From assembly GCA_021373255.1 (NCBI GenBank), contig JAJFTD010000199.1, positions 611 to 64,610 of the forward strand: 64,000 bases of DNA. Reading direction: 5' to 3'. Under the pieces are notes generated by a model, which was given only the letters and a program-made list of their open reading frames with translations, ran no database searches and was not told the origin of the DNA. Each line of letters starts with the position of its first letter. Positions within the stretch are counted from its first letter, which is position 1. The position numbers and the translations under genes were made by a program. The stretch comes from a bacterium (lineage in GTDB: Bacteria; Armatimonadota; UBA5829). This document shows, in pieces, positions 15,645-60,400 of the stretch.

Positions 15645-15977
15645 GTGAAACAGAAGCAAGTCATGAACGTCGACCGACCGACATTGACCTTACACGAGGC
15701 GATGGTACAGATACTCAGCAAGTGCGCCGACCAGACGGCTGAACATGTATACCTGGCTTCGGAGATAAGGCGGCAGACTCTCTACTGGCAGAATGACGGC
15801 AGCGCGGCCCCTTCTGGCCAGATTGCCGTAAGAGCCAGGAATTACCCGGACCTGTTCGAGAAAATTCTGGCTGATCAAGTTAGAGGCCAGAGGGCAAAGA
15901 TAAGGCTCAGGTATGGGTCTGACAGCACTGGCACCGACGTGTGGACCCGTGATCATTGCACAAGAGAACTGGAGTGA
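15645..15977 (+). CDS. hypothetical small protein
   Basis: ORF only. No motif recognised. Confidence 0.3.
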   Translation: MKQKQVMNVDRPTLTLHEAMVQILSKCADQTAEHVYLASEIRRQTLYWQNDGSAAPSGQIAVRARNYPDLFEKILADQVRGQRAKIRLRYGSDSTGTDVWTRDHCTRELE

Positions 15978-42930: not shown

Positions 42931-45900
42931 TCAAAATCCGAACTCGCTCAACGGCTCGCGCATTCGAGACTTGAGAGATGACAGAGTCTCGAATGTGTCC
43001 GCTACGGGCAAGTGTTCGCCAAGCATACTGTAGAGCCTGTGGCACTCGACTCTTGTCATTCCTCCTACTGCAGCATAGAGCGCGAGCTTCTCTGGCAAAT
43101 CAAAGCCTTCCTTGATACAAGCAGCAAGCACCCCTAGTGTTAACGGCATCTGCTCATCAGTTGAATTGCTCTCTATACATCGGCGGTGGAGCAACGTGAC
43201 CAGACCAACTGCATAGCTGAGTTCGGGAACAACCCGGAGGGCAAACTTACGACCGCGCTCAGCATAACGAGTTTTCGAGTTCAACCCCGTCTCAAGTTGC
43301 TTGATCGTAGCGCCGGAAATCCAAGATCGAGCAACCGAAAACAAAGCCTGGACCAGAGCAGCTTTCTCATCTACTGTGGCTTTCTCTGGTTCTTTAGAGT
43401 TCTTGAGCTTAACGAGCTTGCTAAATGCACCTGAAATAGTTTGGGGCCTAAGTATTCCGAACAGCCAATCCGGGTGCTTCTGAAGCCACTCACAAAACCA
43501 TATTAGCCAATCAGACACAGTCCACATCGGTAACGTTCCGATCTCACGCAACGCACAATGCAGACTCGAGACGATTGCAGGGTCAACTCCACTGTCGTTT
43601 GCTGCCCGCGCGAGCCACAGTGGAACGCTCATATCTGTCTCAACACGGCTTTTGAACTGTGAGAACCGCTGAATCCTCTCCTTAAACTCCGCAGATTGCC
43701 CCCGAATATCTGCATAATAAGCAGATAGGCTCCGATTAAGGAACGAGATGTCAACAATACCAGCATCGTCAACCGGCACGCGGTTTACAAAATACGTAAG
43801 GTCTGGATCATAGTTGCCACCGGCATTCTGTATCTTGTCCAAACACAGGTTTATGGGATCCTCTATTTCAACGCACTGATCACTTTGCGAAAAGACCTGT
43901 CGTTGCAAGTCAAACCATCGAGGATGAATAGCATTCTTCCCTTCGTCAAAGTCCACCACAGAACCGGGAATGATCACCACCATTCCTTGAGGGCAATACC
44001 CAGCTCTGCCGGCGCGACCAGCAGCATTTAGCAACTCGTGTGCCTCAAGAGATCGGGCATGCCCTGAATTTATATCGAACCGGTCATCCCCTGCGATAAT
44101 GACAGCTTCCGCTGGCAAGTTCATTCCTTGTGCTAGGGTGTTCGTAGCCGCGATAAGCTGTATGCCATCGCGTCTGCGAAATGCCTCTTCATTAAGCAAC
44201 CTTTCAGAGGGAAGCATCAAGGCGTGGTGACATCCTGCTAACCCGTCAAACGGACTGTAGACGCAAGCTGCATCGCCCATCTCAACTGCCGCGTTTTCGA
44301 TGAGTTCGAGTTCCCGAGAGGAAGGCACAGCCGACTGTATACTATCCTTTAGCTCCCTGGATGCCTCGCGGGCAAGTGACACAGTGTGAGTAGTGTTCTG
44401 TAGAAAGACCAGAGTCTTCATTCCAGCTTTTGCCATGCGAACGCCAATTGAGCGTGCCACCTCCACACGATTGGGAGTCAACGACCACCAAGCATTTGCC
44501 GACAATGGAACAGCGTCACCAAAGCCTAATAGAGCATAGTCCTTACGATCTGTGGTATTCCAAGTCTGATGTAAGCAAAAGAAACCATGTGGTTCTGCGC
44601 TCAGCTGTCTCACCACGTCCTTGCTGGGTGGCTTTGGTTTCTCACCTCGAGCACGAGCAACACGAAGTATCTGGGCTCTCCCTGCTCCGTTGAGCTGCTT
44701 GTATAGATCACCTATCTGATTAGATGGGTAGACAACACAACCACGTGCCTGACGTGTTGGCTTCCACGGCAGATGGATTGACAAACACATCTTGCCACAG
44801 CGTCCGCTGAGCCATTCAGCTAGCTTGTCTGGGTTCTGCATCATTGCAGATAACAGCAAGACATCTGCGCCCGGAGCAGCAGCCATTACGTGTAATAGAC
44901 ACATCGTAGCATCAATGCTACGTCTTGCCGAATTCGCGTCGTTTTCTGAGTAATGAATCAAGTGGCATTCATCGAAGACTACCAATCCACACGATGTGTA
45001 GGACTCCGGTGCAAAGCGAACTTCTGTCAGACATCGCTCAGGAGTCATTACGGCTACTACTGGGCTTTCAAATGACGGTCTTTCATCAGTTTCGGAATAT
45101 TCCCCGCCTCCTGAAAGATAAGTCAGCACTCGATGCGCAGGGAAAGCTTTTCGTAAGTCACTGATAACCTGACTTACCAGAGCGTGGGTCGGCACAAGGA
45201 ACACTACGCTCTGGCCACGGAGTAGTGCCGTAGCGATTTTCAGTTCTGCAAGAGCTGATTTTCCCGCGCCGGTTGGAAAGCTTACCGCGGCCGAGTGACC
45301 CGGAATCAAGTACCCTTTTCGGATCGCCTCCCAGTGATTTTCCCAAAGATAAGGTCTTCTGGTTGCCAGCCCCCTTACGTAGTGTCTCCATTCTTCTTGG
45401 TCAATCCCCATGGGTGCGCTCAAGGCTATGGCGGACACTTGCATCAAGCGATCTGTAGCTATTGAGAGCAGGGATGCTAGATGATGAGGGCCTCCGAACA
45501 ACTCACAGGCTGAATCAAGATATTCGAGGGGTGCGCCAATCTTTTCTCTGAACTCCGGTGGTGGTTGAAACTGCACAACTGCATCTTTGCGCACGTTGCT
45601 GAACAATCCGTATGGATCAACAGATGGCTTGTCACCAAGTAGCATTTGTGATACTGCCCGAACTCCAGCGTAAAGCCGATTCCACAACACTCGACAGGCA
45701 ATTACGTAGAGATCGTCGGACTCCGGATATGAGCTAGTAACATCCGGCGATAATCTGGCAATTCCGGCCAAGTCACCCTTGGCAAGCCCGGATATCGCAT
45801 TTATGAGTGCAGATTCTATGGTGGATTCAGTTTCAGCATTGACCTTATTGGCGACTGCACTTGCATCGGATGGGTAGCCAGCGATTATAAACAGCAGGAT

Positions 45901-46380
45901 TGCAGATAAGTCAGAGGAAATTGCGTCAGCACGCAGGTAACTAGTGAGGTTCTCATCTCGCCGAATCGACTCGGCAAGGTGAAGCAAATGGCGGGCAGAT
46001 GCGGCTACAAACGCGGCACTTCTTGTCTGGGGATTGTCGGGCTGTACTACAACCAAAGACTCATACGTGTTCGCCAATCGCTTGAGTTTGTCTAGGACCA
46101 TGCTTAACTCGTCTTCTGACGGAGCCGCGTCGTTGGCAAGGGATAGTCGCAAGGATACTATAGTCGCATAGGCCTCTGTCATTTCCTCAGGCAAGCTATC
46201 CAGATCCAATTGGTCCAGAGAAGGGGCTTGCGTAATTAGCAGTCGCGTCGTCGCATCAAACATCGGCTGCCTCGAGAAGTGTTTTGATCTCATCAGAGAC
46301 AGACTTGCAGAAGTTGTCCATCCAAGTGCGCATATCTGAAAAAGCGACTGTTTCAGCTCTGCGGCGCGAGATATTGCCAC
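42931..46380 (-). CDS. SF2 DEAD/DEAH-like helicase of 1149 aa, Hachiman HamB-like
   Basis: Helicase motifs are 'FPTGAGKSALAE', 'VVFDECHLI', 'LLSAMMQ' and 'LNAAGRAGRAG'. It has a large C-terminal extension. Its start overlaps the upstream HamA-like gene. Confidence 0.6.
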   Translation of the reverse strand: MAISRAAELKQSLFQICALGWTTSASLSLMRSKHFSRQPMFDATTRLLITQAPSLDQLDLDSLPEEMTEAYATIVSLRLSLANDAAPSEDELSMVLDKLKRLANTYESLVVVQPDNPQTRSAAFVAASARHLLHLAESIRRDENLTSYLRADAISSDLSAILLFIIAGYPSDASAVANKVNAETESTIESALINAISGLAKGDLAGIARLSPDVTSSYPESDDLYVIACRVLWNRLYAGVRAVSQMLLGDKPSVDPYGLFSNVRKDAVVQFQPPPEFREKIGAPLEYLDSACELFGGPHHLASLLSIATDRLMQVSAIALSAPMGIDQEEWRHYVRGLATRRPYLWENHWEAIRKGYLIPGHSAAVSFPTGAGKSALAELKIATALLRGQSVVFLVPTHALVSQVISDLRKAFPAHRVLTYLSGGGEYSETDERPSFESPVVAVMTPERCLTEVRFAPESYTSCGLVVFDECHLIHYSENDANSARRSIDATMCLLHVMAAAPGADVLLLSAMMQNPDKLAEWLSGRCGKMCLSIHLPWKPTRQARGCVVYPSNQIGDLYKQLNGAGRAQILRVARARGEKPKPPSKDVVRQLSAEPHGFFCLHQTWNTTDRKDYALLGFGDAVPLSANAWWSLTPNRVEVARSIGVRMAKAGMKTLVFLQNTTHTVSLAREASRELKDSIQSAVPSSRELELIENAAVEMGDAACVYSPFDGLAGCHHALMLPSERLLNEEAFRRRDGIQLIAATNTLAQGMNLPAEAVIIAGDDRFDINSGHARSLEAHELLNAAGRAGRAGYCPQGMVVIIPGSVVDFDEGKNAIHPRWFDLQRQVFSQSDQCVEIEDPINLCLDKIQNAGGNYDPDLTYFVNRVPVDDAGIVDISFLNRSLSAYYADIRGQSAEFKERIQRFSQFKSRVETDMSVPLWLARAANDSGVDPAIVSSLHCALREIGTLPMWTVSDWLIWFCEWLQKHPDWLFGILRPQTISGAFSKLVKLKNSKEPEKATVDEKAALVQALFSVARSWISGATIKQLETGLNSKTRYAERGRKFALRVVPELSYAVGLVTLLHRRCIESNSTDEQMPLTLGVLAACIKEGFDLPEKLALYAAVGGMTRVECHRLYSMLGEHLPVADTFETLSSLKSRMREPLSEFGF

Positions 46381-47053
46381 TCACAACCATATCGTACCCT
46401 TTGAACAGAAGTGCGTGGGAGACTGCCGGCTTAACTGTAACGCAAACCCGATACTGCTGATGTTTGTTCCAAAACACATCAGCCACTATATCTTCAGCCT
46501 GCTCTACTCCTTTGGCTGCCAGTATAGTAGACACTTCAGCCATCAGTTCATTGTCGCGTTCACCACGTTCATAGGCTGCAAACTCTGGCCAAACCTTATC
46601 TCTAACCTCATCCCGACTATTGTCAGTGGCCTTATCTTCGCAAATAGTAATCCCCCTCAGTCCACTAACACTATCGTTGAGGTGGACAATGAGCCCATCC
46701 TGTCCCTTCTCCGCTGGTTGCATTTGTGGTCTGCGCAGTATGACTAGGGAATCAGTTGACTGCTTAGCAGCAAGCCAGGAGATCAACTGGAACACCCAAC
46801 CATCGCGATGCCAACGTAGACCATCAGAGGCAGGAGGAGAAAGGTGCTTTAGGGCCGCCTGCGCTGCGTTCACGACCATTTTGGGAGACTTGTGTTGCTC
46901 TCCCTCAAGTATCTTCGCTATGTGGATGTGATAGCCTAGAGCAAGCCACGCAACGTACTGAGCAAGAAGCTCGGCGTCATGGATGGTCCACGTGGCACCA
47001 TGACACAGATTCTCGATGGTATAAGGCTGCAACTGAATAGGCATCGTCGTCAT
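46256..47053 (-). CDS. DUF1837-like PD-(D/E)xK protein, Hachiman HamA-like
   Basis: The D-x(n)-E-D-K arrangement is seen in 'GLIVHLND...ITICEDKATD'. The likely start is 'MTTMPIQ', with an RBS 'AAGGA' 4 nt upstream. The ORF call extends to 47212. Confidence 0.5.
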   Translation of the reverse strand: MTTMPIQLQPYTIENLCHGATWTIHDAELLAQYVAWLALGYHIHIAKILEGEQHKSPKMVVNAAQAALKHLSPPASDGLRWHRDGWVFQLISWLAAKQSTDSLVILRRPQMQPAEKGQDGLIVHLNDSVSGLRGITICEDKATDNSRDEVRDKVWPEFAAYERGERDNELMAEVSTILAAKGVEQAEDIVADVFWNKHQQYRVCVTVKPAVSHALLFKGYDMVVSGNISRRRAETVAFSDMRTWMDNFCKSVSDEIKTLLEAADV

Positions 47054-47181
47054 CCTTACGCAGACACATCCATTGAATACCGAGCCAGCATTCACCAGAC
47101 TGATCGCTGCGACAGCGCCGTTACTAATCGTAACACTTATATCATTCGCTACCAGGCAGACATTTACCTGCCAAACTCGGG

Positions 47182-47229
47182 CGTGTCGCCTCCACACTAG
47201 CGCTGAGTGCAAGGTGTGGAGGCGACACG
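47182..47229. other. 16-bp perfect-stem hairpin with a 16-nt loop, between the DUF4238 and HamA-like genes
   Basis: The stem is CGTGTCGCCTCCACAC...GTGTGGAGGCGACACG. It lies about 130 nt upstream of the HamA-like start, on the minus strand. Confidence 0.4.
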
Positions 47230-47438
47230 GGCTTCCGGCAGCAAGACTGCACCGAGGTTCGCGGCTATCCTATTCAAGGACAGTTGATGTTCCTTCCAGG
47301 TTACTATCCGCAGCATTTCTCCCTAATTGCGGGCTCAGGGCACGAGTGGAGTGTTTGATGATAGGCCGCAATTATGACCCTGTCTGTGTCGGCCACAGCT
47401 GCAGGCAACGCGAACAACGGAGCTCAGTTTGAACATTC

Positions 47439-48377
47439 TTATTCTCTGATCGAATCGGCGGCCGTGATCATTTCCTGGCATACGATGTCTGGATGCCGTG
47501 ACGAGATCATATAGCGATCTGCATTCTGCCACAGCAGAATATTGAAGAATCTCTCATTGTTGGCGGCCAATGGGTAATACTGACATGACGGTTCGTTGCG
47601 CATATCATCCATTGTGAGCAGTCGAGTTGGACTCAACGTAAAAAGAACAACTGTGTGTTTTGTCTTCAGTCCAAATGTGCCTTTAGCCAGGTCACTATTC
47701 GTATAGGTTACCGGATTGTCAGTTGTAATAAATACCGGCTCATCAGCAACGATGACCGACCACCGCTTTTCAAGCAGCACAGTCGCGATTTCTCCGACTG
47801 AGTACTTTATGTGGTCCACAAATATCCTCTGGAGTTCGTTGCCAGAAGCAGACTTGTATGTATTATATGAGGTTGCACCGAACGACATTGCCCGTCCTCG
47901 AAACACAATCTCGCCTATCCTCGGGTTTTCTAGACTATCTTTGGGAAGCGTTTCATAAAAAGAGACCAACTCATCATGTATCTTTTTCGTTTGCTCAAGC
48001 ATTGCGGGAGTTCGCACAAGCATGATGGATGTCAGGAGTGCGATGCCCTTTCTAAGTGATGGGGAACTCAAATCGACAAATCCAGTGGCCAACTGCGGCC
48101 ATATTCGTGAGAGCAATGCCTCAGCTTGTGCGAATCGGCTCTCCATTTCGAATGAATGCTTCCCATCGATATCTGCTGGTGAGTAGAGATGGTTTTGAGC
48201 GCATATATCATTGACTCCTGCAAGAACAGGATCACCATCATGTCGGTGAAAGATCCACACTCGAGGCTTTGGCGTGTTTACTGTCTCAGGTGTGGCAAAG
48301 TACTTGAGATAAAACCTTGGAACCCAATGCTGCTTGACTGGATCGTTCATCTTCTCAGTGCATTCCTCTCTTCTCAT
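47439..48377 (-). CDS. DUF4238 family protein
   Basis: The N-terminus 'QHWVPRFYLKYF' is a hallmark I recall for DUF4238. Confidence 0.5.
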   Translation of the reverse strand: MRREECTEKMNDPVKQHWVPRFYLKYFATPETVNTPKPRVWIFHRHDGDPVLAGVNDICAQNHLYSPADIDGKHSFEMESRFAQAEALLSRIWPQLATGFVDLSSPSLRKGIALLTSIMLVRTPAMLEQTKKIHDELVSFYETLPKDSLENPRIGEIVFRGRAMSFGATSYNTYKSASGNELQRIFVDHIKYSVGEIATVLLEKRWSVIVADEPVFITTDNPVTYTNSDLAKGTFGLKTKHTVVLFTLSPTRLLTMDDMRNEPSCQYYPLAANNERFFNILLWQNADRYMISSRHPDIVCQEMITAADSIRE

Positions 48378-48875
48378 CAGTAGGCAGCAGATTACCGCTG
48401 ATTGTCCATCGCAACGGAAGATCCTGATGAGAAAGCGAGCGATATTTGAGAGCGACTACACTAATGCTCATCACTCATCTACCTCTGCGCATACGAAACG
48501 GCAATCAAAAGCATCCTAGACGCAAACGTTACGGTGCGACGTTGACGGGTTTTCGATGCGCTTCGGCTTCGCTATGACTCCCTTATCCTTCGCCATCTGA
48601 TGTCAATCGTCCACAAGACCGGAACACATACAAAACATTGCCAGTGTCATTATTGCAAGGAACCTGAGCATGATGAGTACCCTCTCAATGTTAGCCAGTA
48701 GCCTTAATAATATTCGGCGATTCTTGTTCTTCGGCCTTCTTGAGAATGGAGGTTGCCTTGGCTAAGCAGCCGCTAATTTGGTAAGATGGTAGCAATTCTA
48801 TCACTATAGATTCACGACTCGTGTGCGCCTGGTAGCATCGAAACCGAGCCTAAATGCCGCGAGTAGGGAAATCCG

Positions 48876-50282
48876 ATGCTCTTAACTATTACTACAACTC
48901 ACAAGCCAGCTACTGATCTCGGTTACCTTCTGCACAAGAATCCGGCGCGGGCGCAAGTATTTGAGCTTGCGTTCGGTCAGGCGCACGTCTTCTATCCGAA
49001 GGCGACGGAGGGTCGCTGCACGGCGGCATTGCTGCTCGATGTTGATCCGGTGGCTCTCGTGCGCGGTAGAAAGAGCGGACCGGAGAGCTTTGCGCTTGGC
49101 CAGTATGTGAACGAGCGACCGTATGTGGTGTCGTCATTTATGAGCAACGCGATCTCGCGAGTCTTTGGCACTGCGATGGGCGGCAGGTGCTCCGGCAAAC
49201 CCGAACTTGCTGACCTGGAGATTCCGCTTGTAGCGAAGCTGTCGGTTGTTCCCTGTCGGGGCGGTGAGGATCTGCTGCGGCGTCTGTTTGAGCCGCTGGG
49301 TTACTCGGTGGCGGCTGAGGGGTACCCGCTTGATGACAAGTTCCCGGACTGGGGCGAGAGCGCGTTCTTCACGGTCAGCCTGAAGAAGACCTGCCGATTG
49401 AGCGAGTTGCTCACGCATCTGTATGTACTGATTCCTGTCCTGGATGACGAGAAGCACTACTGGGTCGGGGAGGACGAAGTCGAAAAGCTCCTCAAGCATG
49501 GCGAGGACTGGCTTTCCTCTCACCCGGAAAAGGACCTGATCGTGAAGCGCTACCTTAGGCACCGCCGAAACCTGATGAGCCAGGCAATGGCGCAGCTAAT
49601 GGAGGAGGATTCGTCTGACCCGGATGAAGTCCAGAAAGTGGCCTCTCAGGAAGAGTGGGTGATAGAGGAACGGATCAGCCTCAACGAACAGAGGATGGGC
49701 GCGGTTGTTGCGGCGCTCCGGGCAATTGGCGCAAAGCGTATTCTGGATCTTGGCTGCGGTGAAGGAAAGCTGATCGGGTCACTCCTCAAAGACAAGGAGT
49801 TTGTCGAGATAGTAGGTGTGGACGTATCGTACCGGACTCTTGAGAGGGCCCAGGACAGGCTGCGCGTTGAACAGATGGCGCCTATGCAGCGGGAGCGCAT
49901 TAAGCTCCTGCACGGGTCCCTGATCTATCGCGACAAGCGGCTGGAGGATTACGACGCAGCTGCGGTGGTCGAGGTGATCGAGCACATGGATCTGGCGCGC
50001 CTGGCTGCGTTCGAGCGGGTTCTTTTCGAGTTCGCAAGGCCTGGGACGGTGGTCCTGACGACCCCCAACTCGGAGTATAACGTGAAGTGGGAGAGCCTGC
50101 CTGCGGGGAAGATGCGGCATCGTGACCACCGGTTCGAGTGGACACGCGAGGAGTTCCAGAACTGGGCAAACGGCATTGGTGAGCGATTTGGCTACAGCGT
50201 GCGTTTCCTGCCCGTTGGGCCGGAGGATGCGGAAGTCGGGGCTCCGACACAAATGGCGGTGTTTGAGAGGGATGCGCGGTAA
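48876..50282 (+). CDS. hen1: bacterial Hen1 RNA 3'-terminal ribose 2'-O-methyltransferase
   Basis: About 260 aa of Hen1-specific N-terminal domain are followed by a methyltransferase domain with SAM motif I 'ILDLGCGEGKL'. Length is 468 aa. Pnkp is encoded in the same locus. Confidence 0.75.
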   Translation: MLLTITTTHKPATDLGYLLHKNPARAQVFELAFGQAHVFYPKATEGRCTAALLLDVDPVALVRGRKSGPESFALGQYVNERPYVVSSFMSNAISRVFGTAMGGRCSGKPELADLEIPLVAKLSVVPCRGGEDLLRRLFEPLGYSVAAEGYPLDDKFPDWGESAFFTVSLKKTCRLSELLTHLYVLIPVLDDEKHYWVGEDEVEKLLKHGEDWLSSHPEKDLIVKRYLRHRRNLMSQAMAQLMEEDSSDPDEVQKVASQEEWVIEERISLNEQRMGAVVAALRAIGAKRILDLGCGEGKLIGSLLKDKEFVEIVGVDVSYRTLERAQDRLRVEQMAPMQRERIKLLHGSLIYRDKRLEDYDAAAVVEVIEHMDLARLAAFERVLFEFARPGTVVLTTPNSEYNVKWESLPAGKMRHRDHRFEWTREEFQNWANGIGERFGYSVRFLPVGPEDAEVGAPTQMAVFERDAR

Positions 50283-50497
50283 TGTCGAGAAGCATCCATA
50301 CCAACCGCAAGGACATCATCGAACTTGCCCAGTGGAAATACGCCGATCCCGAAGTTCGACGAGCTAAGGCTCAAGAACTATGGGCAGATATTCGCCGAAA
50401 GCGAAGGGCAAAGCGACAGGTGAAAGGCGAACGTGCCACCGAAGATGCGATGGTTGCATCCGCAGAGGTCGAGGCCGTGCCCTATATCAGTGCATGA
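50282..50497 (+). CDS. small basic ORF, possibly a frameshifted N-terminus of the following gene
   Basis: It starts in TAATG overlap with the hen1 stop. It overlaps the 50433 ORF in a different frame. Confidence 0.25.
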   Translation: MSRSIHTNRKDIIELAQWKYADPEVRRAKAQELWADIRRKRRAKRQVKGERATEDAMVASAEVEAVPYISA

Positions 50498-52511
50498 CGC
50501 TGGACAATTCGTGCATTTCCCTGCCTCCCCTGATGACATCCGAAATGTCATGCGCCTCCTGCCGGGCGGATCGCTGGACGGGCTCGCCGGAATCGAGCTG
50601 TGCCTGGGAACCGAATACCAGAAAGATCCCTCGGTATACGACCCAGAAGACGGCTACGAACCAGATCCGCTCGTGGGACGCATCGGTGATGAGATGCTTC
50701 CCGGTATCTACAGGGGACACTGCCTGGGTTACTACAGCCGGCCGCACTCAGCAATCCGTGTCTTCGCCTATGTGCACGATCCTGAAAAGGTGGACGTCCG
50801 CCTGTGGGAAATCTACCTGAAGCTGCAAATGCTCGCAACCGTTGTCCACGAGATAGCGCACTCAGTTGATCTTACGACTCGGGTGGCCAAGGATCGCTGG
50901 CTGGCTGATGACAAGTCAAAGGTCGAGATGTATGCCGAGAAGCTGGAATACTCATGGCTGATGGATTGCGTGGTACCTTACTTGGAGATGACATATCCTG
51001 AACAGGTGAAGGCTTTGCTCGATTGGATAGAGCATTACGGCGGTGACCGTATCAGTCTCGCTCTACTTGCGGGAGAACCGCGTCGCACTGGAGCGAAAGG
51101 TATAACGCGCCTTGTTACAGATGCTTCAGAAGCTCTGCACGATCTGGCCCGATCGGTTGCGGATGGTAAGGATCTGAGGGAATCAAGGCTGGACTTCGCC
51201 AGGTATCTTCATAATGCCGAGTTGAATGGTGAGGCGTTGCGGATACTGGATCGGTTGCTGGCCGAGGATCAGAACGACGCTGAAGTGTTTGCACTGAAAG
51301 CTGATGTGTTCTATGATCTTGAGGATTACGAACAGAGCCGGGTAGCCGCCGAGCGGGCGATCTCGTTGGACGCTGATTCCGAAGATGCATGGATCCATCT
51401 TTCCTACGCTCACACGGAGCTTGGGAATTGGGATGACGCAATTCGAGTGACCACCCATCTGCTCGATCACTTCGACTTGCGCAAGCCTCGGAAAGCTAGC
51501 ATGCTGGTTAGTCGCGCGCACGCCAAGCTGAATACGGGCGACATACGGGGAATGAAGTGTGACCTGGGACTTGCGCTGCAGGAAAACGACAAGCCACCTG
51601 TTCGCTGGCAAGTTGCTACTGTTCGAGCACTGCATGAAGCAAGGTTAGACATGGACGGGACTAGAAAGATGAGCGAGACTGCCGGAGAGAATGAGCGCCC
51701 AGCGTCAGAGTTGATCGAGAAAGCTCTGGAGTCGCTGCCGGACCGTGAGGATGTCTACTGGGGCGCTGTCAGGGCATTGTGGACGCGTGGGAGCAAGGAT
51801 GTCTTTGAAGAGGCAAAGCGCCTGTGCTCAAGTGAGAACGCGTTAGAGAGGCGGTTGGGAGTGGATGTCCTCGGACAATTGGATGCTCCGGAGCGCAAGT
51901 TTGCGGGCGAGTCTGTTCTCATCCTTACCGGGATGCTGCGGAGACAGGGCCTGGTCCGCAAGGAGCAGGATCCGAACGTGCTCTACTCAATCGGTATCGC
52001 ACTCGGACATCTTGGCGATCCGAAAGCAACAAAGCCGCTTGCCGGTATGTCCGAGCATCCATCCGCTGCGGTGCGCTATGGCGTCGCCTTCGGCCTGTGT
52101 GGGCACACGAACAAACAGGCCGTGAAGGTCCTGATCGAGCTGTCATCGGACCCATACGCGTTCGTGCGGAACTGGGCCACATTTGGGCTGGCACAGCAGA
52201 TCGACTTGGATACTCCTGCGATCCGTGAGGCATTATTCCAGCGGGTCGATGACGAGGATGATGATACTCGCGCTGAAGCCTTGTTGGGACTTGCTATCAG
52301 AAAAGATGAGAGGGTAATTGAGCCGCTGACCAGCGAACTGAGCCGAGACGATGTGTCAGCACTTGCCATTGAAGCGGCGGAGAAGATGGCTGACCAGAGG
52401 CTGTATCCAGCGTTGCTTGCATTGAGCCAAGATTGGACCGGCGACGATGAGGCACTGGCATCCGCGATTGCCGCTTGTGAACAAGCTACCGGGAGGCCCG
52501 ACCGTGAGTGA
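50433..52511 (+). CDS. putative HExxH zinc-metallopeptidase-like protein with TPR and HEAT/PBS-lyase-like repeats
   Basis: The motif 'VVHEIAHSVD' is present. TPR-like repeats cover about aa 250-380. HEAT-like repeats include 'AVRYGVAFGL' and 'FVRNWATFGL'. The start is uncertain. Confidence 0.45.
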   Translation: MPPKMRWLHPQRSRPCPISVHDAGQFVHFPASPDDIRNVMRLLPGGSLDGLAGIELCLGTEYQKDPSVYDPEDGYEPDPLVGRIGDEMLPGIYRGHCLGYYSRPHSAIRVFAYVHDPEKVDVRLWEIYLKLQMLATVVHEIAHSVDLTTRVAKDRWLADDKSKVEMYAEKLEYSWLMDCVVPYLEMTYPEQVKALLDWIEHYGGDRISLALLAGEPRRTGAKGITRLVTDASEALHDLARSVADGKDLRESRLDFARYLHNAELNGEALRILDRLLAEDQNDAEVFALKADVFYDLEDYEQSRVAAERAISLDADSEDAWIHLSYAHTELGNWDDAIRVTTHLLDHFDLRKPRKASMLVSRAHAKLNTGDIRGMKCDLGLALQENDKPPVRWQVATVRALHEARLDMDGTRKMSETAGENERPASELIEKALESLPDREDVYWGAVRALWTRGSKDVFEEAKRLCSSENALERRLGVDVLGQLDAPERKFAGESVLILTGMLRRQGLVRKEQDPNVLYSIGIALGHLGDPKATKPLAGMSEHPSAAVRYGVAFGLCGHTNKQAVKVLIELSSDPYAFVRNWATFGLAQQIDLDTPAIREALFQRVDDEDDDTRAEALLGLAIRKDERVIEPLTSELSRDDVSALAIEAAEKMADQRLYPALLALSQDWTGDDEALASAIAACEQATGRPDRE

Positions 52512-53442
52512 TGGAGATCAATTCCAATCTCTTGTCCCCACTGGCACCGAGATTGTTACGCGCGCAGTCGCAGGTGAACACCCTGTAGGTTCCGTTGGAG
52601 TCATAACTGCATCGCCGGCGGATAACACGCACTCGTATCAAATCCACCTGGTGGACGGCGCCGAGATCAGCTTGCGGCGAGAGGAGTTTGCGATCTTGAA
52701 GCACTTCCAGCGCCATGGGATCGACGAGCCGGGAGCAGTGCTTGCGGAGTATGATCTGTATGACTGCGTGATCTATCGGTGCGTGGTCGGGTCGCGGGCG
52801 TACGGGCTGGACGGCGATGAGTCGGATATTGATAGGAGAGGGATCTATCTGCCACCGGCTGATCTGCAGTGGTCGCTTTACGGGGTGCCCGAACAGCTTG
52901 AGAACAAGGAGACTGACGAGGCCTATTGGGAGCTAAGGAAGTTCCTGATCCTGGCGCTGAAGGCCAATCCAAATATTCTGGAGTGTCTGCACACGCCTAT
53001 TGTGGAGATGGTGACACCTCTTGCCCAGGAACTGCTCGATATGCGGGAGGCGTTTCTATCGAAGCTGGTCTACCAAACCTACAATGGCTATGTGATATCC
53101 CAGTTCAAGAAGCTGGAGCAGGACCTGCGCACGCGCGGAGAGATTCGCTGGAAGCACGCGATGCACCTGATCCGGCTGCTCCTGTCGGGGATCACGGCGC
53201 TGCGCGAGCGCTATGTGCCGGTAAGCGTGGAGGAGCATCGGGACCGGCTTCTTGCGATCCGGCGGGGCGAAGTGCCGTGGGAGGAGATCGACGCGTGGCG
53301 GCTGGAGTTGCACAAGGAGTTCGATGCGGCGTATGAGAAGACGTCACTGCCGGAGAGGCCGGATTATGCCGGGGCGAATGAATTTCTGATAAAAGCGAGG
53401 AAGATGAGAGCTTTCGAGAATGGGTGCGATGGACATGGATAG
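52504..53442 (+). CDS. pol-beta superfamily nucleotidyltransferase, RlaP-like, associated with an RNA-repair operon
   Basis: The NTase motif is 'VGSRAYGLDGDESDIDRRGIY'. A likely GTG start overlaps the upstream stop. The full ORF call begins at 52447. Confidence 0.5.
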   Translation: MSDGDQFQSLVPTGTEIVTRAVAGEHPVGSVGVITASPADNTHSYQIHLVDGAEISLRREEFAILKHFQRHGIDEPGAVLAEYDLYDCVIYRCVVGSRAYGLDGDESDIDRRGIYLPPADLQWSLYGVPEQLENKETDEAYWELRKFLILALKANPNILECLHTPIVEMVTPLAQELLDMREAFLSKLVYQTYNGYVISQFKKLEQDLRTRGEIRWKHAMHLIRLLLSGITALRERYVPVSVEEHRDRLLAIRRGEVPWEEIDAWRLELHKEFDAAYEKTSLPERPDYAGANEFLIKARKMRAFENGCDGHG

Positions 53443-54409
53443 CAGGCTCACTAAGGTAATCGAGGAACACCCATACCCGCTGCTGTTCGCAACGATCAGC
53501 GGGGCGCATCTCTACGGGTTTCCGTCGCCGGATTCCGACTACGACCTGCGCGGTGTGCACATGCTGCCGGCCAAGGAAGTGGTAGGGCTGGAGCCCGGGC
53601 GGGAGACGATAGAACTGTCGGAAATGCGTGACGGCCTTGAAATCGACCTGGTGACGCACGACATCCGCAAGTTCTTCCTGCTCCTATTGAAGAACAACGG
53701 CTACGTGCTGGAGCAGTTATACTCGCCACTGGTTGTCCATACGACGCCGGAGCACGAGGAACTGAAGCAGATCGCAAGGGGCTGCATTACTCGCCACCAT
53801 GCCCACCACTACATGGGCTTTGCAGAGACTCAGTGGAAGCTCTTCGAGAAAGAACAGCCGCGCCGGGTGAAGCCGCTGCTATATACATTCCGGGTGCTGC
53901 TGACTGGTATCCACCTGATGCGCACGGGTCAGATCGAGGCCAATCTGCCTCGGCTGAATGAAGAGGCGAAGCTGTCCTATATCGATGATCTCATAACCAT
54001 GAAGGTGTCGGGGGCGGAGCAGTCGGCGCTGGATGATGCCAACGTATCATTCTACCTATCGGAGTATGATCGACTGCGGTATGATCTGGAAAACGCTTTC
54101 GGAAAGAGCACGCTGCCGGAGCGACCTCTTCGCCGAGGTGCTCTCAATGATCTCCTTGTCCGGGTGCGCCTGGGTCAAATCGGGGTTACGCCCGGAACTA
54201 CATGCCCCGTATGTGGACTGGAAGATGCATTTGATGAGCCGGGTGGCTATGATATCTGCGAACGATGTGGTTGGGAAGATGATCCCGTCCAGTCCGCCAA
54301 TCCCGATCCTTCCGGTGGAGCGAACAAGGAATCACTGAACGAGGCGCGGAAGCACAGTGAGGAAATGATTGCCCGATGGCAGCGTGTGAGGAGAGCGCAT
54401 GGCAACTGA
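53420..54409 (+). CDS. second RlaP-like pol-beta nucleotidyltransferase (paralogue)
   Basis: The NTase motif is 'SGAHLYGFPSPDSDYDLRGVH'. The C-terminal zinc ribbon is 'CPVCG...CERCGWEDD'. Confidence 0.5.
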   Translation: MGAMDMDSRLTKVIEEHPYPLLFATISGAHLYGFPSPDSDYDLRGVHMLPAKEVVGLEPGRETIELSEMRDGLEIDLVTHDIRKFFLLLLKNNGYVLEQLYSPLVVHTTPEHEELKQIARGCITRHHAHHYMGFAETQWKLFEKEQPRRVKPLLYTFRVLLTGIHLMRTGQIEANLPRLNEEAKLSYIDDLITMKVSGAEQSALDDANVSFYLSEYDRLRYDLENAFGKSTLPERPLRRGALNDLLVRVRLGQIGVTPGTTCPVCGLEDAFDEPGGYDICERCGWEDDPVQSANPDPSGGANKESLNEARKHSEEMIARWQRVRRAHGN

Positions 54410-54635
54410 GAAGATCTACATTCAACTGCTCAATGAGGGCACAGTTGTCTATCGCCCGACGCTTGGTGTAGTAGTGTCGGAAGGAGTATATCGCGTTCTG
54501 CCCACTGAAAACTATGATCCCGAAGACGAGGTGTGGGAGTTTCTGCCAGGTGACACTGTAAAGTGCACAGCAGAGGTGAAATCTGGAGCGCAAGGCGAGG
54601 AGACCGTGCTGGTTGCCAAAGAGAGAGTCGGCTGA
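54399..54635 (+). CDS. hypothetical 78-aa protein
   Basis: An RBS 'AGGAGAG' is present. The gene overlaps the end of the upstream gene. Confidence 0.35.
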   Translation: MATEKIYIQLLNEGTVVYRPTLGVVVSEGVYRVLPTENYDPEDEVWEFLPGDTVKCTAEVKSGAQGEETVLVAKERVG

Positions 54636-54667
54636 GCACACGAGCTACGCCCCCCGATGGAGAAACA

Positions 54668-57220
54668 ATGAAACTAACAATCCCTGAACTTGCCCTGGTG
54701 GTCCTGATCGGCCCATCGGGTTGTGGAAAATCGAGCTTTGCGCGGGCGCAGTTCAAGCCGACGGAGGTTCTATCCTCGGACTTTTACCGCGCGCTGGTTT
54801 CTGACGACGAGAACGATCAGGCGGCGACCAAAGATGCGTTCGAGATCCTGCACTTTATCGCGGCCAAAAGGCTTGCAGCCGGGAAGCTGACTGTGGTGGA
54901 TGCCACGAACGTCCAGCCGGAGGCCCGTAAGCCCCTGGTTGCACTTGCGCGGGAGTATCACTGCCTGCCGGTGGTGATAGTGCTCAACATCAATGAGAGG
55001 ATCTGCCATGATCGCAATCGGGAGCGCCCCGACCGCGACTTCGGCCCGCACGTCATTCGCCAGCAGAGCGCGCAGCTCAAGAAGTCCCTGGGTTACCTCA
55101 AGCGGGAGGGATTCCGGCACGTATTTGAGCTAAGATCGCCTGAGGAGGTTGCCGAGGTCGAGATAGAGCGGCAGCCTCTATGGAACAACAAGCGAGATGA
55201 GCATGGCCCATTCGATATCATCGGAGATGTTCACGGTTGCTTTGACGAGCTTTCCACGCTGATTGCCCATCTCGGTTATGAGGTCTCGGAGAACGTGGCC
55301 AGGCACCCGGAAGGGCGCAAGCTCGTGTTCCTCGGAGACGTCGTTGACCGGGGGCCTGGAATAGTCGAAACGCTGCGGCTGGTGATGGGGTCAGTTGCGG
55401 CGGGTACGGCGCTGTGTGTGCCCGGAAACCACGATATAAAGCTGTTGCGCAAGCTCTCGGGCCGGGACGTGCAAATCACCCACGGTCTTGAGGACTCACT
55501 CTCACAGCTCGCAGATGAGCCTGATGAGTTCAGGGAGCAGGTAAAGTTATTCATCGATGGCCTCGTGAGCCATTATGTGCTTGATGACGACAAACTCGTG
55601 GTAGCGCATGCAGGGATGAAAGAGGAGATGCAGGGGCGAGGCTCCGGCAAGGTCCGTGACTTCGCCTACTACGGCGAGACCACAGGTGAAACCGATGAGT
55701 TCGGTCTGCCGGTCCGTTACAACTGGGCGGCGGAGTATCGGGGAAAGGCCACCGTCGTCTACGGCCACACACCGGTGCCCGAAGCCGATTGGCTGAACCG
55801 CACTATCAATATTGACACCGGCTGCGTGTTCGGCGGGAGCCTCACGGCGCTGCGTTATCCTGAGAAAGAACTCGTGTCGGTTCCGGCAGCCCGGATCTAC
55901 GCAGAGCCCGCTAAGCCATTCGAGCCCAACGCGGACGCGCAGGCACTTTCCGCCCAGCAGGAGCATGATGATATCTTGGATATCGACGATGTCATTGGCA
56001 AGCGGATCGTGTCAACCCGCCTGAACCGCACCGTCACTATCCGGGAAGAGAATGCGACTGCCGCTCTCGAAGTTATGAGCCGGTTTGCCGCCAATCATAG
56101 GTGGCTGATCTACCTGCCGCCGACTATGTCTCCGTGCGAGACAAGTCGCAGACCCGATCTGCTGGAGCACCCCGAAGAGGCATTTTCATACTACCGGCAC
56201 GAGGGAGTATCGCGCGTGGTCTGCGAGCAGAAGCACATGGGCTCGCGGGCAGTTGTGATTGTCTGCCGAGACGAGGACGCCGCTCGCAAGCGCTTTGGTG
56301 TCGTGAGTGAAGGCATCGGCGTCTGCTACACCCGCACGGGCCGTCGGTTCTTCAACGACCTGGAGCTTGAGAAACAAATGTTGGAGGGAGTCCACTCGGC
56401 GCTGGATTCATCCGGCTTCTGGGACGAGTTCGCCACCGACTGGGTCTGCCTGGACTGTGAGCTTATGCCGTGGTCGGCAAAGGCTTATGAGTTGCTAAAG
56501 TCGCAGTATTCCGCCGTCGGGGCGGCATCAAAGGCTTCGCTGAGTGAGGCTGTCGCGGTCCTGGAGACTGCTGTCGGTAATGGCGCCGATGTGTCCGAGC
56601 TTCTTGGAAGATTCCAGAGCCGCAGGGTGATGGTAGGACAATATGTGGATGCGTACCGCCAATACTGCTGGCCTGTGGCTGGAATATCAGACTACAAACT
56701 CGCGCCGTTCCACATCCTGGCGACGGAGAGCGGAGTCCATGTAGACAAAGATCACATCTGGCACATGGATACTCTGGCGAAGATCTGCCGCGCTCTCGAT
56801 GGCGGCGACTCTTTGTTTCTTTCCACCCCGTATAAGGTAGTCGATGTAACCGACCCCGCAAGCCAGGAAGATGGAGTCCGCTGGTGGGAGGAGCTCACTG
56901 GCTCCGGCGGCGAGGGGATGGTTGTCAAGCCAATGGACTTCGTCACCAGGGGCCGCAAGGGCCTTTCGCAGCCAGCGGTGAAATGCCGTGGCCGGGAGTA
57001 CCTGCGTATCATCTACGGACCGGAATATACTGCGCCGGAGAACCTGGAACGACTGCGCTCGCGCGCTCTGGCTGGGAAACGGTCGCTTGCGATACGTGAG
57101 TTCGCCCTCGGAGTGGAGGGCTTGGAGCGGTTCGTTCGCAAGGAGCCGCTCAGACGGGTGCATGAGTGCGTGTTCGGCGTCCTTGCGCTCGAAAGTGAGC
57201 CGGTGGACCCGAGGCTTTAG
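54668..57220 (+). CDS. pnkp: polynucleotide kinase-phosphatase-ligase (bacterial Pnkp)
   Basis: The kinase P-loop is 'GPSGCGKSS'. The calcineurin-like phosphatase motifs are 'DIIGDVHGCFDEL', 'GDVVDRGP' and 'GNHD'. The adenylyltransferase/ligase motifs are 'KHMGSR' and 'GEGMVVKP'. The protein is 850 aa from the ATG at 54668. Confidence 0.8.
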   Translation: MKLTIPELALVVLIGPSGCGKSSFARAQFKPTEVLSSDFYRALVSDDENDQAATKDAFEILHFIAAKRLAAGKLTVVDATNVQPEARKPLVALAREYHCLPVVIVLNINERICHDRNRERPDRDFGPHVIRQQSAQLKKSLGYLKREGFRHVFELRSPEEVAEVEIERQPLWNNKRDEHGPFDIIGDVHGCFDELSTLIAHLGYEVSENVARHPEGRKLVFLGDVVDRGPGIVETLRLVMGSVAAGTALCVPGNHDIKLLRKLSGRDVQITHGLEDSLSQLADEPDEFREQVKLFIDGLVSHYVLDDDKLVVAHAGMKEEMQGRGSGKVRDFAYYGETTGETDEFGLPVRYNWAAEYRGKATVVYGHTPVPEADWLNRTINIDTGCVFGGSLTALRYPEKELVSVPAARIYAEPAKPFEPNADAQALSAQQEHDDILDIDDVIGKRIVSTRLNRTVTIREENATAALEVMSRFAANHRWLIYLPPTMSPCETSRRPDLLEHPEEAFSYYRHEGVSRVVCEQKHMGSRAVVIVCRDEDAARKRFGVVSEGIGVCYTRTGRRFFNDLELEKQMLEGVHSALDSSGFWDEFATDWVCLDCELMPWSAKAYELLKSQYSAVGAASKASLSEAVAVLETAVGNGADVSELLGRFQSRRVMVGQYVDAYRQYCWPVAGISDYKLAPFHILATESGVHVDKDHIWHMDTLAKICRALDGGDSLFLSTPYKVVDVTDPASQEDGVRWWEELTGSGGEGMVVKPMDFVTRGRKGLSQPAVKCRGREYLRIIYGPEYTAPENLERLRSRALAGKRSLAIREFALGVEGLERFVRKEPLRRVHECVFGVLALESEPVDPRL

Positions 57221-57482
57221 TGCTCGGAATACACAAGATCAACTGCCGATCAAGCAGATACACTTTGTAGCTGGGCATAGTGAGGGTGATGCCATTTGTC
57301 CTGTCTGCAGTCTCAAGACTGGCAGTATTGCCAAAGATCGGGACTGTCGCGTTCGTGTAGAAGTGGATTGTCTGTGGCAGTGTCTTGCGGCCATATAGAA
57401 AAGATTCTTTCTCCTATTATGTCCGGAGACCGGAACTGACGGAGGCTGATCCATCTGCTCTATTGTCAACCAGCAGCACACG

Positions 57483-60400
57483 CTATCGCACTCGCGGGCG
57501 CTTGGGAGGAGACAGATCGATTCGATATTGAACGAGTATGTCCTCGCCCGGATCGCTTCCGAGCTTCTGCCTAAGAAACTCTACCAGATCTTCTTGACGC
57601 GGCTGTCCGAATGCCAATCTGTATAGCGCCATGCTGCTCTTCAGGTTCTGTAAGCGTCGTTCGTCTCGGCTCAGTGGCAGTATAGGCACGTGGCGCTCAA
57701 TGCAGTATCCGCCGTTTGCCTCGCATATCCAGAACGGAACCAGATCATTGTCGCCTTTATGTCTTGCAGCAACAGCACGACTAAAGAGAGTTTTCCATGG
57801 GTCCGAGAATGGCTTCCACTCGCGGCACAAACCTCCCAAACCATACGTCTTCGCCAGATTCCGGCGAATAACATGTCCTTTGTAACGGTGGATTCTCCCT
57901 TCACGCTGTTCCATATCTACTGGGTTGGATGGCAGGTTCCAGTGGTATATCCTGTGGCAATACTGGTGGAAGTCCAGTCCTTCCTGCCCGATGGACGTCG
58001 ATGCGAGGATGAATGGTCTGAACGGTGAGTTGAATGCCGACCTAACCTGGTCCTCACGTGTCACATCTTCACCCTCCTCGTTTTTGCCTTCGCCAAACGC
58101 AAGGGCGAAGCGGCATCGGATGCTCCGCTTGACAAGGGGTGTTGTAACCAGCCTGCTAGTCGGATCCAAGCTGATCTCATCGAAGTCTAATCGTGTAGTA
58201 CGGATGGCAACAGCATCATGGATCACCTCTGCAATACCTGGCGCCGCTTTCTCAGGCGATGAGCCCAGTAGACCCAACGATTCGTTTAAGACGTGGACGT
58301 ACTCGTCCATCACTGATTGGATGTTCCCATCGATGCAATAGTCAAGAACCTGCTCCCAGAAAGGCTTTCCCTCACTACTACCTCTAATCAATGCTATGGA
58401 CTCAGGTAGGTTGAACATACTTCGAAAACCCATCGCAATGCGGGCGGCAGCAGTGAGAACTTCCGGCATGGACGTAACATTGTGTCCTGGCCACAGTCTG
58501 CAAAGTGCCCGTAGCGCAGTGACCGCGGGAGACGCAACTGCCAACTTGGATACGAGCTTGACTACTGCCTCGGGCACGCTTCCCAAGTCCTTGGGATTGT
58601 GGAACCACTCGCGGAATAGGTTCAAGTGATCAGCAAAGGAGGTCTGATCCTCATCGTCAACCCGTGTCTTAAGTGTACTCTTCCAGCCGATGGTGTCCGA
58701 ATTGCAGTCCAGCCAGCTTCCGGCTTCATTCTCGGCAAATGCCTTGTCGAGCAAGGCTACAGAAGACCACGCCCATCTATCGTCAAAGCCGTCGTCTCTC
58801 CGCATTCTCTTGTCTGTTGCTTTGCGCAGTAATGCACTGACCTGCTGCTCAATGGCCGATAGGACAAGCTCCTTTGTTGGGGCGATCCCATCTTTAGCCA
58901 AGCGTTTGGATATGGCCAGTGGGTCTATCCCGGTAGCCAAAGACACACATGGGTAGAGCAAGGGTAAGACTGCCATTCCAGTAAGGCGTCCCTCGCTTCT
59001 GGCAAACCTGAGGAGAGGACCGCGCTTTCGTCTCAGTTCGGTATAGTCCGTGCCTAAGTTCCCCAAACTTACCATCTGACGCTCCGCCTCATAGCTGCAT
59101 AGCGCTGCGATGACTTTGGATACCACTTTCCACGATGAAAAGATCAGACTCTTGGTTACATCCTGGACGCCGGCATCCGCAAATACACCGTCGGATTCGT
59201 AGTAGGGAAGTGACGGCGGCACCCATAGTAGCTTCCACGCGCCAGTGTCGAGATATTGCTGCATCAGCGCACGAAGCTTCGCGTTCTGAGCTTTGATCGG
59301 CCTATACTCTAAGAACGTATCCCATGTCAGCACGTAATCCGGATTTGAGATGATCACATCGCTCACGCGTCTGTTGCCGGTCTGGGAGGCCAACTCACGT
59401 TCGAATTGCTTCTTTATCTGGTAGCTGTCCATGAAGTTCAACAGGTACGGGCTTGACTTCCAATACTCGATCTGGTCGCAGGTCTGGAGCCCACGCGCGA
59501 TGCTATCGACGGCTGCATACCCCCGGATATCGTCGCTCTCCAACGTACAAGTTCCGGCCGCACGGTGCACGTCCTGGACCATGCCATTTCTATTGCTGCT
59601 TACCGCCAGGCGTTCCGTCCGAACCATAACACTGCGCAGCATCTCCTCAACTCTGCACTTGATAGTCCTGAGGCCTTTGGTGTCGTCTACACTTGTTCTT
59701 TGGAGTTGCCTTCTATACTGCTCCATCAACACTGCGAACTGAGCCGATTTCTCTTCATCGTCGAGAAGAAACCTAACAGTTCCAAGGAAGTCCCTGTAGT
59801 GATCCTCTTCGGTTCCCTCTTGGCTAAGAGTATACATTTTGTAGGGAGTTGCCGAGAGTAGCACTACCTTGGCATCTTTATACTGGAAGAGTGCTTGTGC
59901 GAGCTGGCTGGCTTCATCATCACCATTCAGAAGGTGCCTGAATCGCTGGAATTCGTCGAGAATTATCAGGTCAGGCTCAAGAGCATTAACGCAGCTTTTT
60001 GCAAGGATGCTCCTTAGCTCGCCAACAACCGCGTTCCTATCCCGTCGATCTTGCGCGGGGACGTTCTTGTAATGCTGCCTGCGACGCTGGAAGCTGGTGC
60101 AGACGTCATCAAACCGATGGCGAACTTCAGGATGCTCCTCCAGATCGCACAGAAAAAGCGCCTGTAGCCTTTTGTCGATGTCTTCTGGGTCAATTCCATG
60201 GTTACACCACCAATCCCAAGAAGTCGAGCTGACGTTCCCTTGGAACACGTTAGCCGCCGCTGTCCCTCGGAATCCCCAGCCGTCTCTAAGCATATGGTAG
60301 ATAAGGGCTCTTTCCTGCATCATCCCCAGATTGGATCCCAAGTCCAGCGAAGTGGCAGGAGTGAACGAAATGAAGTTGAGCTTCTTATCCGTCAAGTCTT

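Follow-up and report, generated by a model that had tools for sequence, protein, structure and literature searches.

An enlarged Pnkp/Hen1-type RNA-repair cassette of Armatimonadota with a probable zincin-solenoid accessory module

Organization of the cassette

The window analyzed here is a 64,000-nt stretch of the Armatimonadota contig JAJFTD010000199.1, and it is 100% identical to contig JBDKRM010000055.1 of the Armatimonadota metagenome-assembled genome (MAG) GCA_039683435.1. Six genes make up one densely packed operon at positions 48876-57220 of its + strand: hen1, a zincin-TPR-HEAT gene, RlaP1, a fusion of RlaP2 with a CPCC domain, a 78-aa open reading frame (ORF) and pnkp (Table 1). An earlier reading made from the letters alone (below, the sequence-only reading) had described seven co-oriented genes with overlaps or short gaps. 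Co-orientation and spacing hold, with intergenic distances of -23 to +32 nt across the cassette. The number of genes is six, because a 71-aa ORF counted at that time is the N-terminus of the zincin gene, which is split by a frameshift. A scan of the locus found no more internal promoter-like or terminator-like sites than expected by chance; together with the overlaps and short gaps, this argues for a single operon.

Nucleotide homology to an orthologous locus of another Armatimonadota MAG, L001 (~82%), is limited to positions 48619-57219, ending at the pnkp stop, and the flanks on both sides are unrelated. The GC content is 0.57 within the cassette versus ~0.50 in the flanks. The confinement of the homology to the cassette, the unrelated flanks and the difference in GC content point to a mobile unit. 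The homologous segment upstream of hen1 might be a conserved leader or promoter region, although no sigma-70-like site was called in it. Rfam gave no match within 47000-58500. Taken as a whole, the locus is likely to be an enlarged RNA-repair cassette of the Pnkp/Hen1 type, which forms a single operon, moves horizontally and is equipped with a zincin-solenoid accessory module that acts in the repair of ribotoxin damage.

Both core enzymes are clearly identifiable, as the sequence-only reading had proposed, with TIGR04074 and TIGR04075 scores of about twice the respective cutoffs. Hen1 consists of a Hen1_L domain (PF12623, 387 bits, residues 1-241) and methyltransferase domains (residues 274-435), and is 92% identical to its L001 orthologue. 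The pnkp ORF opens at 54563, with the real start at 54668, and TIGR04075 covers residues 36-885 of the long ORF. Pnkp carries AAA_33, Metallophos and PNKP_ligase (614 bits) domains and is 90% identical to the L001 Pnkp. In its translation, the kinase is recognizable by the P-loop GPSGCGKS, the phosphatase by GDVHGC, GDVVDRG and GNHD, and the ligase by the lysine of KHMGSR.

In the literature, hen1 and pnkp are described as adjacent co-oriented ORFs (PMC3675462). Pnkp heals the broken RNA ends, the C-terminal domain of Hen1 sets a 2'-O-methyl mark onto the 3'-terminal nucleotide, and the N-terminal domain of Hen1 activates the Pnkp ligase. The sealed, methylated junction withstands re-cleavage (PMC3675462). 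In the window, a stretch of 4.4 kb with four genes (zincin-TPR-HEAT, RlaP1, RlaP2-CPCC and the 78-aa ORF) lies between the two. Strict adjacency is not universal for this system, since RlaP genes also separate hen1 from pnkp in Deinococcus. The idea that a leading hen1 is unusual was rejected, as hen1 precedes pnkp in all eight plasmid-borne Hen1 loci inspected.

Some of the other Hen1 loci deserve mention in their own right. On a Rhodococcus koreensis plasmid (L023, 8433-10957), the pnkp beside hen1 is missing from the gene list; tblastn recovers this pnkp in two frames, and a frameshift has probably made it a pseudogene. A second repair system lies a few kb from Pnkp/Hen1 in two cases, namely RtcB-PrfH on pSR-1 of Skermanella rosea (L025) and RtcB with a metallophosphoesterase in a Longimicrobium (L029), which suggests that RNA-repair systems cluster together.

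Table 1. Features of the RNA-repair cassette and of the genes on either side of it (positions in the window).
Feature	Position	Strand	Details
Candidate leader or promoter region, conserved	48619-48875	+	Nucleotide homology to L001 (82%) starts at 48619, 257 nt 5' of the hen1 start
hen1	48876-50282	+	TIGR04074, 736 bits (cutoff 340)
zincin-TPR-HEAT gene	50282-52511	+	742 aa after 1-nt correction; as assembled, 71-aa ORF (50282-50497) and 692-aa ORF (50433-52511)
Basic N-terminal helix	50282-50478	+	~66 aa, MSRSIHTNRKD...KRRAKRQVKGER
Frameshift site	50479-50481	+	CCC run, one extra base relative to L001
Zincin-fold catalytic domain (predicted)	50481-51077	+	199 aa; HEIAH 50847-50861; conserved Glu (E149 of the domain) 50925-50927
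TPR region	51111-51464	+	TPR_19, 44.8 bits (cutoff 25), and other TPR models; residues 227-344 of the 692-aa ORF
C-terminal HEAT region, YibA-like	51747-52487	+	HEAT_2, 69.9 bits (cutoff 27.7)
RlaP1	52504-53442	+	312 aa; PF10127, 147.3 bits (cutoff 23); ~85-aa conserved N-terminal extension
RlaP2-CPCC	53420-54409	+	PF10127, 192.3 bits, residues 7-248; PF14206 Cys_rich_CPCC, 53.9 bits, residues 261-316
78-aa ORF	54399-54635	+	Called as a gene in the source record; lineage-specific; expression uncertain
pnkp	54668-57220	+	850 aa from ATG 54668; TIGR04075, 1442 bits (cutoff 750); kinase, 2',3'-phosphatase, ligase
Upstream genes	42931-48377	-	DUF4238 protein 47439-48377; unassigned 318-aa ORF 46256-47212; 1149-aa DEAD helicase
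Azaca system, complete	57483-63835	-	PADLOC; ZacC 57483-60743 (1141 bits), ZacB 60736-62577 (596 bits), ZacA 62570-63835 (440 bits)

The zincin-TPR-HEAT protein

As assembled, the second gene of the cassette is broken into two overlapping ORFs, of which the 71-aa ORF matched no family by itself. The DNA alignment (GTGCCCTATATC in the window, ATA-CCGATATC in L001) contains a single-base gap in L001, and deletion of one C from the window restores a single 742-aa ORF with no internal stop. Homologues P0001-P0004 all begin with MSRSIHT, at the same start as the 71-aa ORF of the window, and run on continuously. The frameshift suspected earlier within 50282-50500 is thus a 1-nt insertion at the CCC run. 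The corrected protein shares 81% identity with its L001 orthologue, which is intact and 723 aa long; the intact orthologue is available in GCA_039680575.1. Programmed ribosomal frameshifting at CCC-U was considered and rejected, as the frame is unbroken in the 82%-identical orthologue, and other disrupted copies break elsewhere. Either the assembly of the window is wrong at this base, or the gene was recently inactivated.

The protein begins with a basic segment, in which S2, R3, S4 and H6 are invariant in a six-sequence alignment. Over 69 family members, the first 60 residues have a mean net charge of +7.3 and contain on average 15.5 lysines and arginines. A full-length AlphaFold model of P0001, built from five sequences, predicts a long helix for this N-terminus; its predicted local distance difference test (pLDDT) score is 62, and the model was not used for the fold search. 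The next part is the predicted catalytic domain with its HEIAH motif, followed by TPR and HEAT repeats, in agreement with what had been read from the 692-aa ORF. Most members of the family, whose typical length is 450-530 aa, have a TPR region. The HEAT region matches NF007244 (“putative lyase”) at 219.9 bits over residues 439-685, below the equivalog cutoff of 275, so that it is not assigned to the YibA type. It is 50% identical to a separate HEAT-CPCC gene of L001. The fusion of zincin and HEAT was encountered only in the Armatimonadota lineage (two genomes), and separate HEAT genes are present in L029 and L030.

Zincin-type domains of this kind form a large family. A first, word-indexed homologue search gave five proteins, and the extent of the family is taken from a complete HMMER search in which the 199-aa domain was the query and which yielded 449 cluster representatives at 50% identity (291 with E < 1e-30). 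The usual architecture is a basic helix, the zincin domain and TPR. HExxH is present in 151 of 154 retrieved proteins, usually in the form HExxHHxD; its H, E and H are invariant in alignments of 24 and 30 sequences. A Glu at +26 from the first His accompanies HExxH in 128 of the 153 members examined. In a structural model of the domain, HExxH lies within helix 110-135 and the Glu within helix 145-171. The near-invariant HHxD after HExxH offers an alternative candidate metal ligand beside the +26 Glu.

The N-terminal 265 aa gave no Pfam or NCBIfam match at threshold and no sequence relative in the PDB; the best sub-threshold Pfam match was Zincin_1 (E 0.041), in 5 of 24 members. The best Foldseek match was IrrE, and it was weak (E 0.08). 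The domain has the features expected of a zincin fold, and the conservation of HExxH, the +26 Glu and the basic N-terminus identifies it as a predicted zincin-fold metallohydrolase family that no curated model yet covers.

The RlaP nucleotidyltransferase pair

Two paralogous pol-beta nucleotidyltransferases (NTases) of the RlaP type follow the zincin gene, as had been recognized before; both match PF10127 far above the cutoff, and the G[SA]...SDxDxRG motif is intact in both, in RlaP1 as GS...SDxDxRG. In the RlaP alignment, G96, G101, S107, D108, D110, R112 and G113 are invariant in both paralogue clades, and the position of the third catalytic carboxylate is acidic (D/E). RlaP1 and RlaP2 are only 28% identical to each other and fall into distinct clades, each with orthologues 52-66% identical across phyla. 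Those of RlaP1 occur on Deinococcus plasmids and in L028, L029, L030, L018 and L017. RlaP1 starts at the GTG at 52504, not at 52447, and is identical to the NCBI product P0155. Its N-terminal extension has no Pfam, NCBIfam or PADLOC match. RlaP2 is 81% identical to RlaPb of L001 (residues 4-251). The CPCC domain, at about 54200-54367, is attached to RlaP2 in the window and to the HEAT gene in L001.

The source record calls only an 81-aa CPCC protein here (L019 10939-11906; window 54164-54409) and no gene over the RlaP2 domain, despite an uninterrupted 329-aa ORF. The public record may annotate RlaP2-CPCC wrongly or treat it as a pseudogene.

RlaP proteins were named for their linkage to RNA ligases and have been linked to several counter-RNase repair systems (PMC6514570, PMC7824862). 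In the window, both stand between hen1 and pnkp, the gene that carries the ligase. Pseudomonas RlaPs add 1-2 nucleoside monophosphates onto an RNA 3'-OH, which has been proposed to counter nucleotide-excising ribotoxins (Carruthers et al. 2025, bioRxiv 10.64898/2025.12.29.696909). The layout hen1-RlaP1-RlaP2-pnkp recurs on Deinococcus ficus pDFI2 and D. gobiensis P2, with orthologues 53-60% identical. The insertion of two RlaP genes is therefore of a known, recurrent kind. The recurrent pairing and the conserved N-terminal extension of RlaP1 suggest that the two proteins are not redundant.

Other arrangements also exist. In Asticcacaulis, two NTases lie downstream of pnkp. The RlaP pair is found without Pnkp/Hen1 in L016, L018 and L028, and RlaP1 is found alone in Microcoleus. 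In the Phycisphaerae MAG locus L018 (10001-14604), SIR2 and DUF2310 genes are placed between RlaP1 and RlaP2. Downstream of the RlaPs, a remnant of 21 aa matches the Pnkp C-terminus at 81% identity, and a reverse transcriptase comes next; this locus looks like a decayed or remodelled cassette.

The small ORF between RlaP2-CPCC and pnkp is present as had been described. It has no Pfam, NCBIfam or PADLOC match and no counterpart in L001, whose equivalent position holds a 178-aa ORF (15224-15760) absent from the window. It also has no similarity to the ORFs located 5' of pnkp in other loci. A common homology of such pre-pnkp ORFs (78 aa in the window, 178 aa in L001, 237 aa in D. ficus, 269 aa in L007, and those of Skermanella) was considered and dropped, as only those of L007 and L029 match. 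These two, from Longimicrobiaceae (L007 11363-12172 and L029 12388-12844), are conserved with each other (31% identity, E 1e-13), and have no Pfam match and no similarity to the 78-aa ORF. The pre-pnkp ORF of L007 overlaps an alternative 1101-aa reading frame in which Pnkp is longer at its N-terminus.

Association of the zincin family with RNA-repair genes

Loci carrying the zincin domain were screened with the window proteins and Pfam, and 12 independent ones had usable context. RNA-repair genes adjoin the zincin gene in seven of these 12 informative loci: four with hen1, two with the RlaP pair and one with an Rnl-type RNA ligase. This proportion is far above any plausible background, as RlaP, Hen1 and Pnkp are rare genes, in the sense of an order-of-magnitude inference and not of a computed statistic. 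In a clustering by domain distance, the linked members and the window fall into one group, and three clearly unlinked members (L011, L015 and L031) into another.

The hen1-containing loci differ in arrangement. The shared order in the window and L001 is Hen1-zincinTPRHEAT-[HEAT-CPCC]-RlaP1-RlaP2-x-Pnkp, where the bracketed HEAT-CPCC gene (12209-13252) belongs to L001 and is absent from the window. A 98-aa ORF of L001 with faint PRA-PH/MazG-like similarity (14166-14462, E 0.13) is absent as well. L007 (Longimicrobiaceae) reads Hen1-zincinTPR-269 aa-Pnkp, and L029 (Longimicrobium) reads Hen1-zincin-HEAT-RlaP1-RlaP2, with RtcB upstream. L030, an unassigned metagenome contig, reads Hen1-TPR-RlaP1-DUF2225-HEAT-RlaP2-zincinTPR-Pnkp. 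The hen1...pnkp order is confirmed in two cases, Armatimonadota and L007; Pnkp of L030 was detected by Pfam and tblastn only, and L029 ends short of the pnkp position.

In the remaining linked loci, the partner is an RlaP pair or a ligase. L028 (5105-8753) reads RlaP1-ADP-ribosylglycohydrolase-RlaP2-zincin, the latter without TPR, and has neither Pnkp nor Hen1. In L016, a zincinTPR gene lies 4.5 kb from the RlaP pair, and in L006 (Myxococcales) it is convergent, tail-to-tail, with a PF09414 Rnl-type RNA ligase gene. The neighbours of L028 are Mu-like phage genes (Gam, AAA_22, DUF6874) and a Band_7 gene, and this locus could be a phage-borne or prophage-adjacent version of the cassette. In L003, a gene fragment for HGTP_anticodon (2-394), the anticodon-binding domain of aminoacyl-tRNA synthetases, lies directly upstream of a zincin-TPR homologue; this may be chance, though the gene is tRNA-related.

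Depending on the cassette, the zincin, TPR, HEAT and CPCC modules form fusions or are encoded by separate neighbouring genes. This alternation suggests that they cooperate physically. The genes between hen1 and pnkp are conserved with these two elsewhere (the RlaPs in Deinococcus, zincin in L001, L007, L029 and L030), which speaks against a random insertion. The zincin protein is probably a genuine extra part of the RNA-repair system, as it is found beside RNA-repair genes in several unrelated bacteria. The profile matches and the recurrence in other loci likewise support what the sequence-only reading had proposed, an elaborated Pnkp/Hen1 locus with an unrecognised metallopeptidase-like repeat protein.

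Position in a defence island

The cassette is part of a defence island. A Hachiman-like helicase lies on its upstream side, and a complete Azaca system, convergent with pnkp, lies 263 nt downstream of that gene. The upstream 1149-aa DEAD helicase has partial similarity to HamB of Hachiman (125 bits), restricted to the helicase core, and no HamA was detected. This upstream region may be Hachiman-like or represent a novel defence pair. The placement of the cassette adds evidence that RNA repair belongs to the defence-island repertoire.

Proposed function and alternative explanations

By analogy with the studied systems, Pnkp would heal toxin-cut RNA ends, Hen1 would methylate the 3'-terminal ribose, and the Pnkp ligase would seal. 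The RlaP pair, judging from the preprint cited above and from gene order, may act after healing and before sealing, restoring 1-2 nucleotides at the 3'-OH where a toxin has excised bases. As a conserved pair, RlaP1 and RlaP2 may work jointly or with different nucleotide preferences. From the known roles of Pnkp/Hen1 and RlaP, a function in counter-defence against tRNA-cleaving toxins can be inferred for the whole. The TPR/HEAT solenoids would serve as a scaffold or target-binding platform, and the basic N-terminal helix might dock on RNA. The zincin domain may be a nucleic-acid-associated protease comparable to Wss1/SprT, which would remove a ribotoxin, or another protein stuck on the damaged tRNA or ribosome. 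It is put forward as a tentative proposal, to be held with clear reserve, that the zincin is the dedicated protease of an RNA “repairosome”, tethered to RNA by the basic helix and guided by TPR/HEAT, with the RlaP pair rebuilding the ends and Pnkp/Hen1 sealing and methylating them. If this were true, a single mobile operon travelling in defence islands would link the repair of RNA to the removal of the toxin.

The main rival keeps the zincin in the repair pathway and changes its substrate. A metal-dependent ribonuclease of the YbeY kind could trim ragged or mis-extended RNA 3' ends, which would provide a clean primer for RlaP, or could remove surplus nucleotides before methylation by Hen1 and ligation by Pnkp. 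We regard both forms of this explanation as rather unlikely; a protease is favoured because the family appears to keep a complete peptidase catalytic set.

Several observations weigh against any role of the zincin in RNA repair. The gene is frameshifted in the window and may be non-functional here, and the metagenomic copies of L016, L030 and L032 also look split, at different positions. Five of the 12 informative loci (L008, L011, L015, L031 and L032) have no RNA-repair neighbour. The expectation that the zincin gene accompanies pnkp/hen1 in other genomes is borne out at the four hen1 loci and not at these five, so that the linkage is facultative. On the short contigs L003, L004, L009, L010, L013 and L014 and the P0004 contig, the immediate neighbours are all unrelated. 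No zincin is present in the eight plasmid Hen1 loci, and no copy of the domain was found in IMG/VR viral contigs or PLSDB plasmids. The census of loci is also small, and it is shaped by which contigs happened to be long.

Such observations would fit a zincin-TPR(-HEAT) gene that is a passenger or a selfish element, landing in permissive spots of mobile cassettes, decaying in the window and having no part in RNA repair. The split copies, the many family members in unrelated contexts (efflux, ABC transporter, thyA/folA, two-component system) and the Deinococcus cassettes that manage without a zincin all agree with this. However, the gene lies inside or beside RNA-repair genes, at varying operon positions, in seven independent loci of at least four lineages, and within hen1-containing cassettes it is always co-directional and tightly spaced. 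The alternation of its HEAT, TPR and CPCC partners between fused and separate forms in the same cassettes also speaks against a passenger. The intact L001 orthologue is 81% identical, near the 82-92% of the neighbouring enzymes, and thus the gene does not evolve like a pseudogene. Finally, several of the apparent splits are on contigs with indels in other genes too, such as RlaP2 in L030. A mere passenger is consequently improbable in our judgement.

Least credible of all is a regulatory role, in which the zincin, as an IrrE/ImmA-type protease activated by stress, would cleave a repressor or sensor to switch the cassette on, with TPR/HEAT doing the sensing, and would not attack toxins or damaged RNA: IrrE is the best Foldseek match, TPR/HEAT modules are commonly sensor or partner-binding domains, and RNA-repair operons such as rtcBA are regulated by damage signals, but the IrrE similarity is not significant, Peptidase_M78 is not among the weak Pfam matches, no HTH (helix-turn-helix) or repressor gene was seen in any cassette, and the zincin gene is itself an internal gene of the operon under its supposed control.

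Whether as a protease or as a trimming enzyme, the zinc-hydrolase/solenoid module points to a step beyond end-healing and sealing, namely protein removal or RNA trimming. Pnkp/Hen1 is biochemically well studied, and the activity of RlaP has only just been assigned. The cassette gives a concrete, clonable set of proteins, for which GCA_039680575.1 is the source of the intact orthologue.

Comparison with known systems

The Pnkp/Hen1 core and the RlaP additions were already known, and the zincin module is new. As far as checked, in the literature covered and leaving aside the comparative survey of Burroughs & Aravind 2016, zincin-TPR-HEAT is an undescribed accessory of Pnkp/Hen1-RlaP cassettes. 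With the canonical Pnkp/Hen1 systems of Clostridium thermocellum and Anabaena variabilis, studied in the Shuman and Huang laboratories, the cassette shares a full-length trifunctional Pnkp, a two-domain Hen1, co-orientation and the upstream position of hen1. Its chemistry of healing, methylating and sealing would be expected to be alike (PMC3675462). The difference lies in the four genes that have been inserted between the two enzymes.

The Deinococcus cassettes have the same order of hen1, RlaP1 with its N-terminal extension, RlaP2 and pnkp, and both paralogues keep the catalytic motif, but these cassettes lack the zincin, TPR, HEAT and CPCC elements. In D. ficus, the ORF that precedes pnkp is unrelated.

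The RFH(PrfH)-RtcB repair and ribosome-rescue systems (PMC6514570) are also RNA ligase-centred conflict systems with a TPR protein, the proposed scaffold, and a Pol-beta NTase. In contrast to the cassette, they use the RtcB ligase instead of the Pnkp ligase, an NTase of another family and a release factor in place of the zincin, and they have no Hen1.

For the zincin domain itself, the comparison is with Wss1/SPRTN and ArdC, zincin proteases associated with nucleic acids, and with the minigluzincins (Pfam Zincin_1). By sequence, the domain in the window lies outside every Pfam and PDB family, and its motif is HExxHHxD with a Glu at +26, not HExxHx5H. Wss1/SPRTN and ArdC work in DNA-protein-crosslink repair or anti-restriction, whereas the partner here is RNA-repair machinery.

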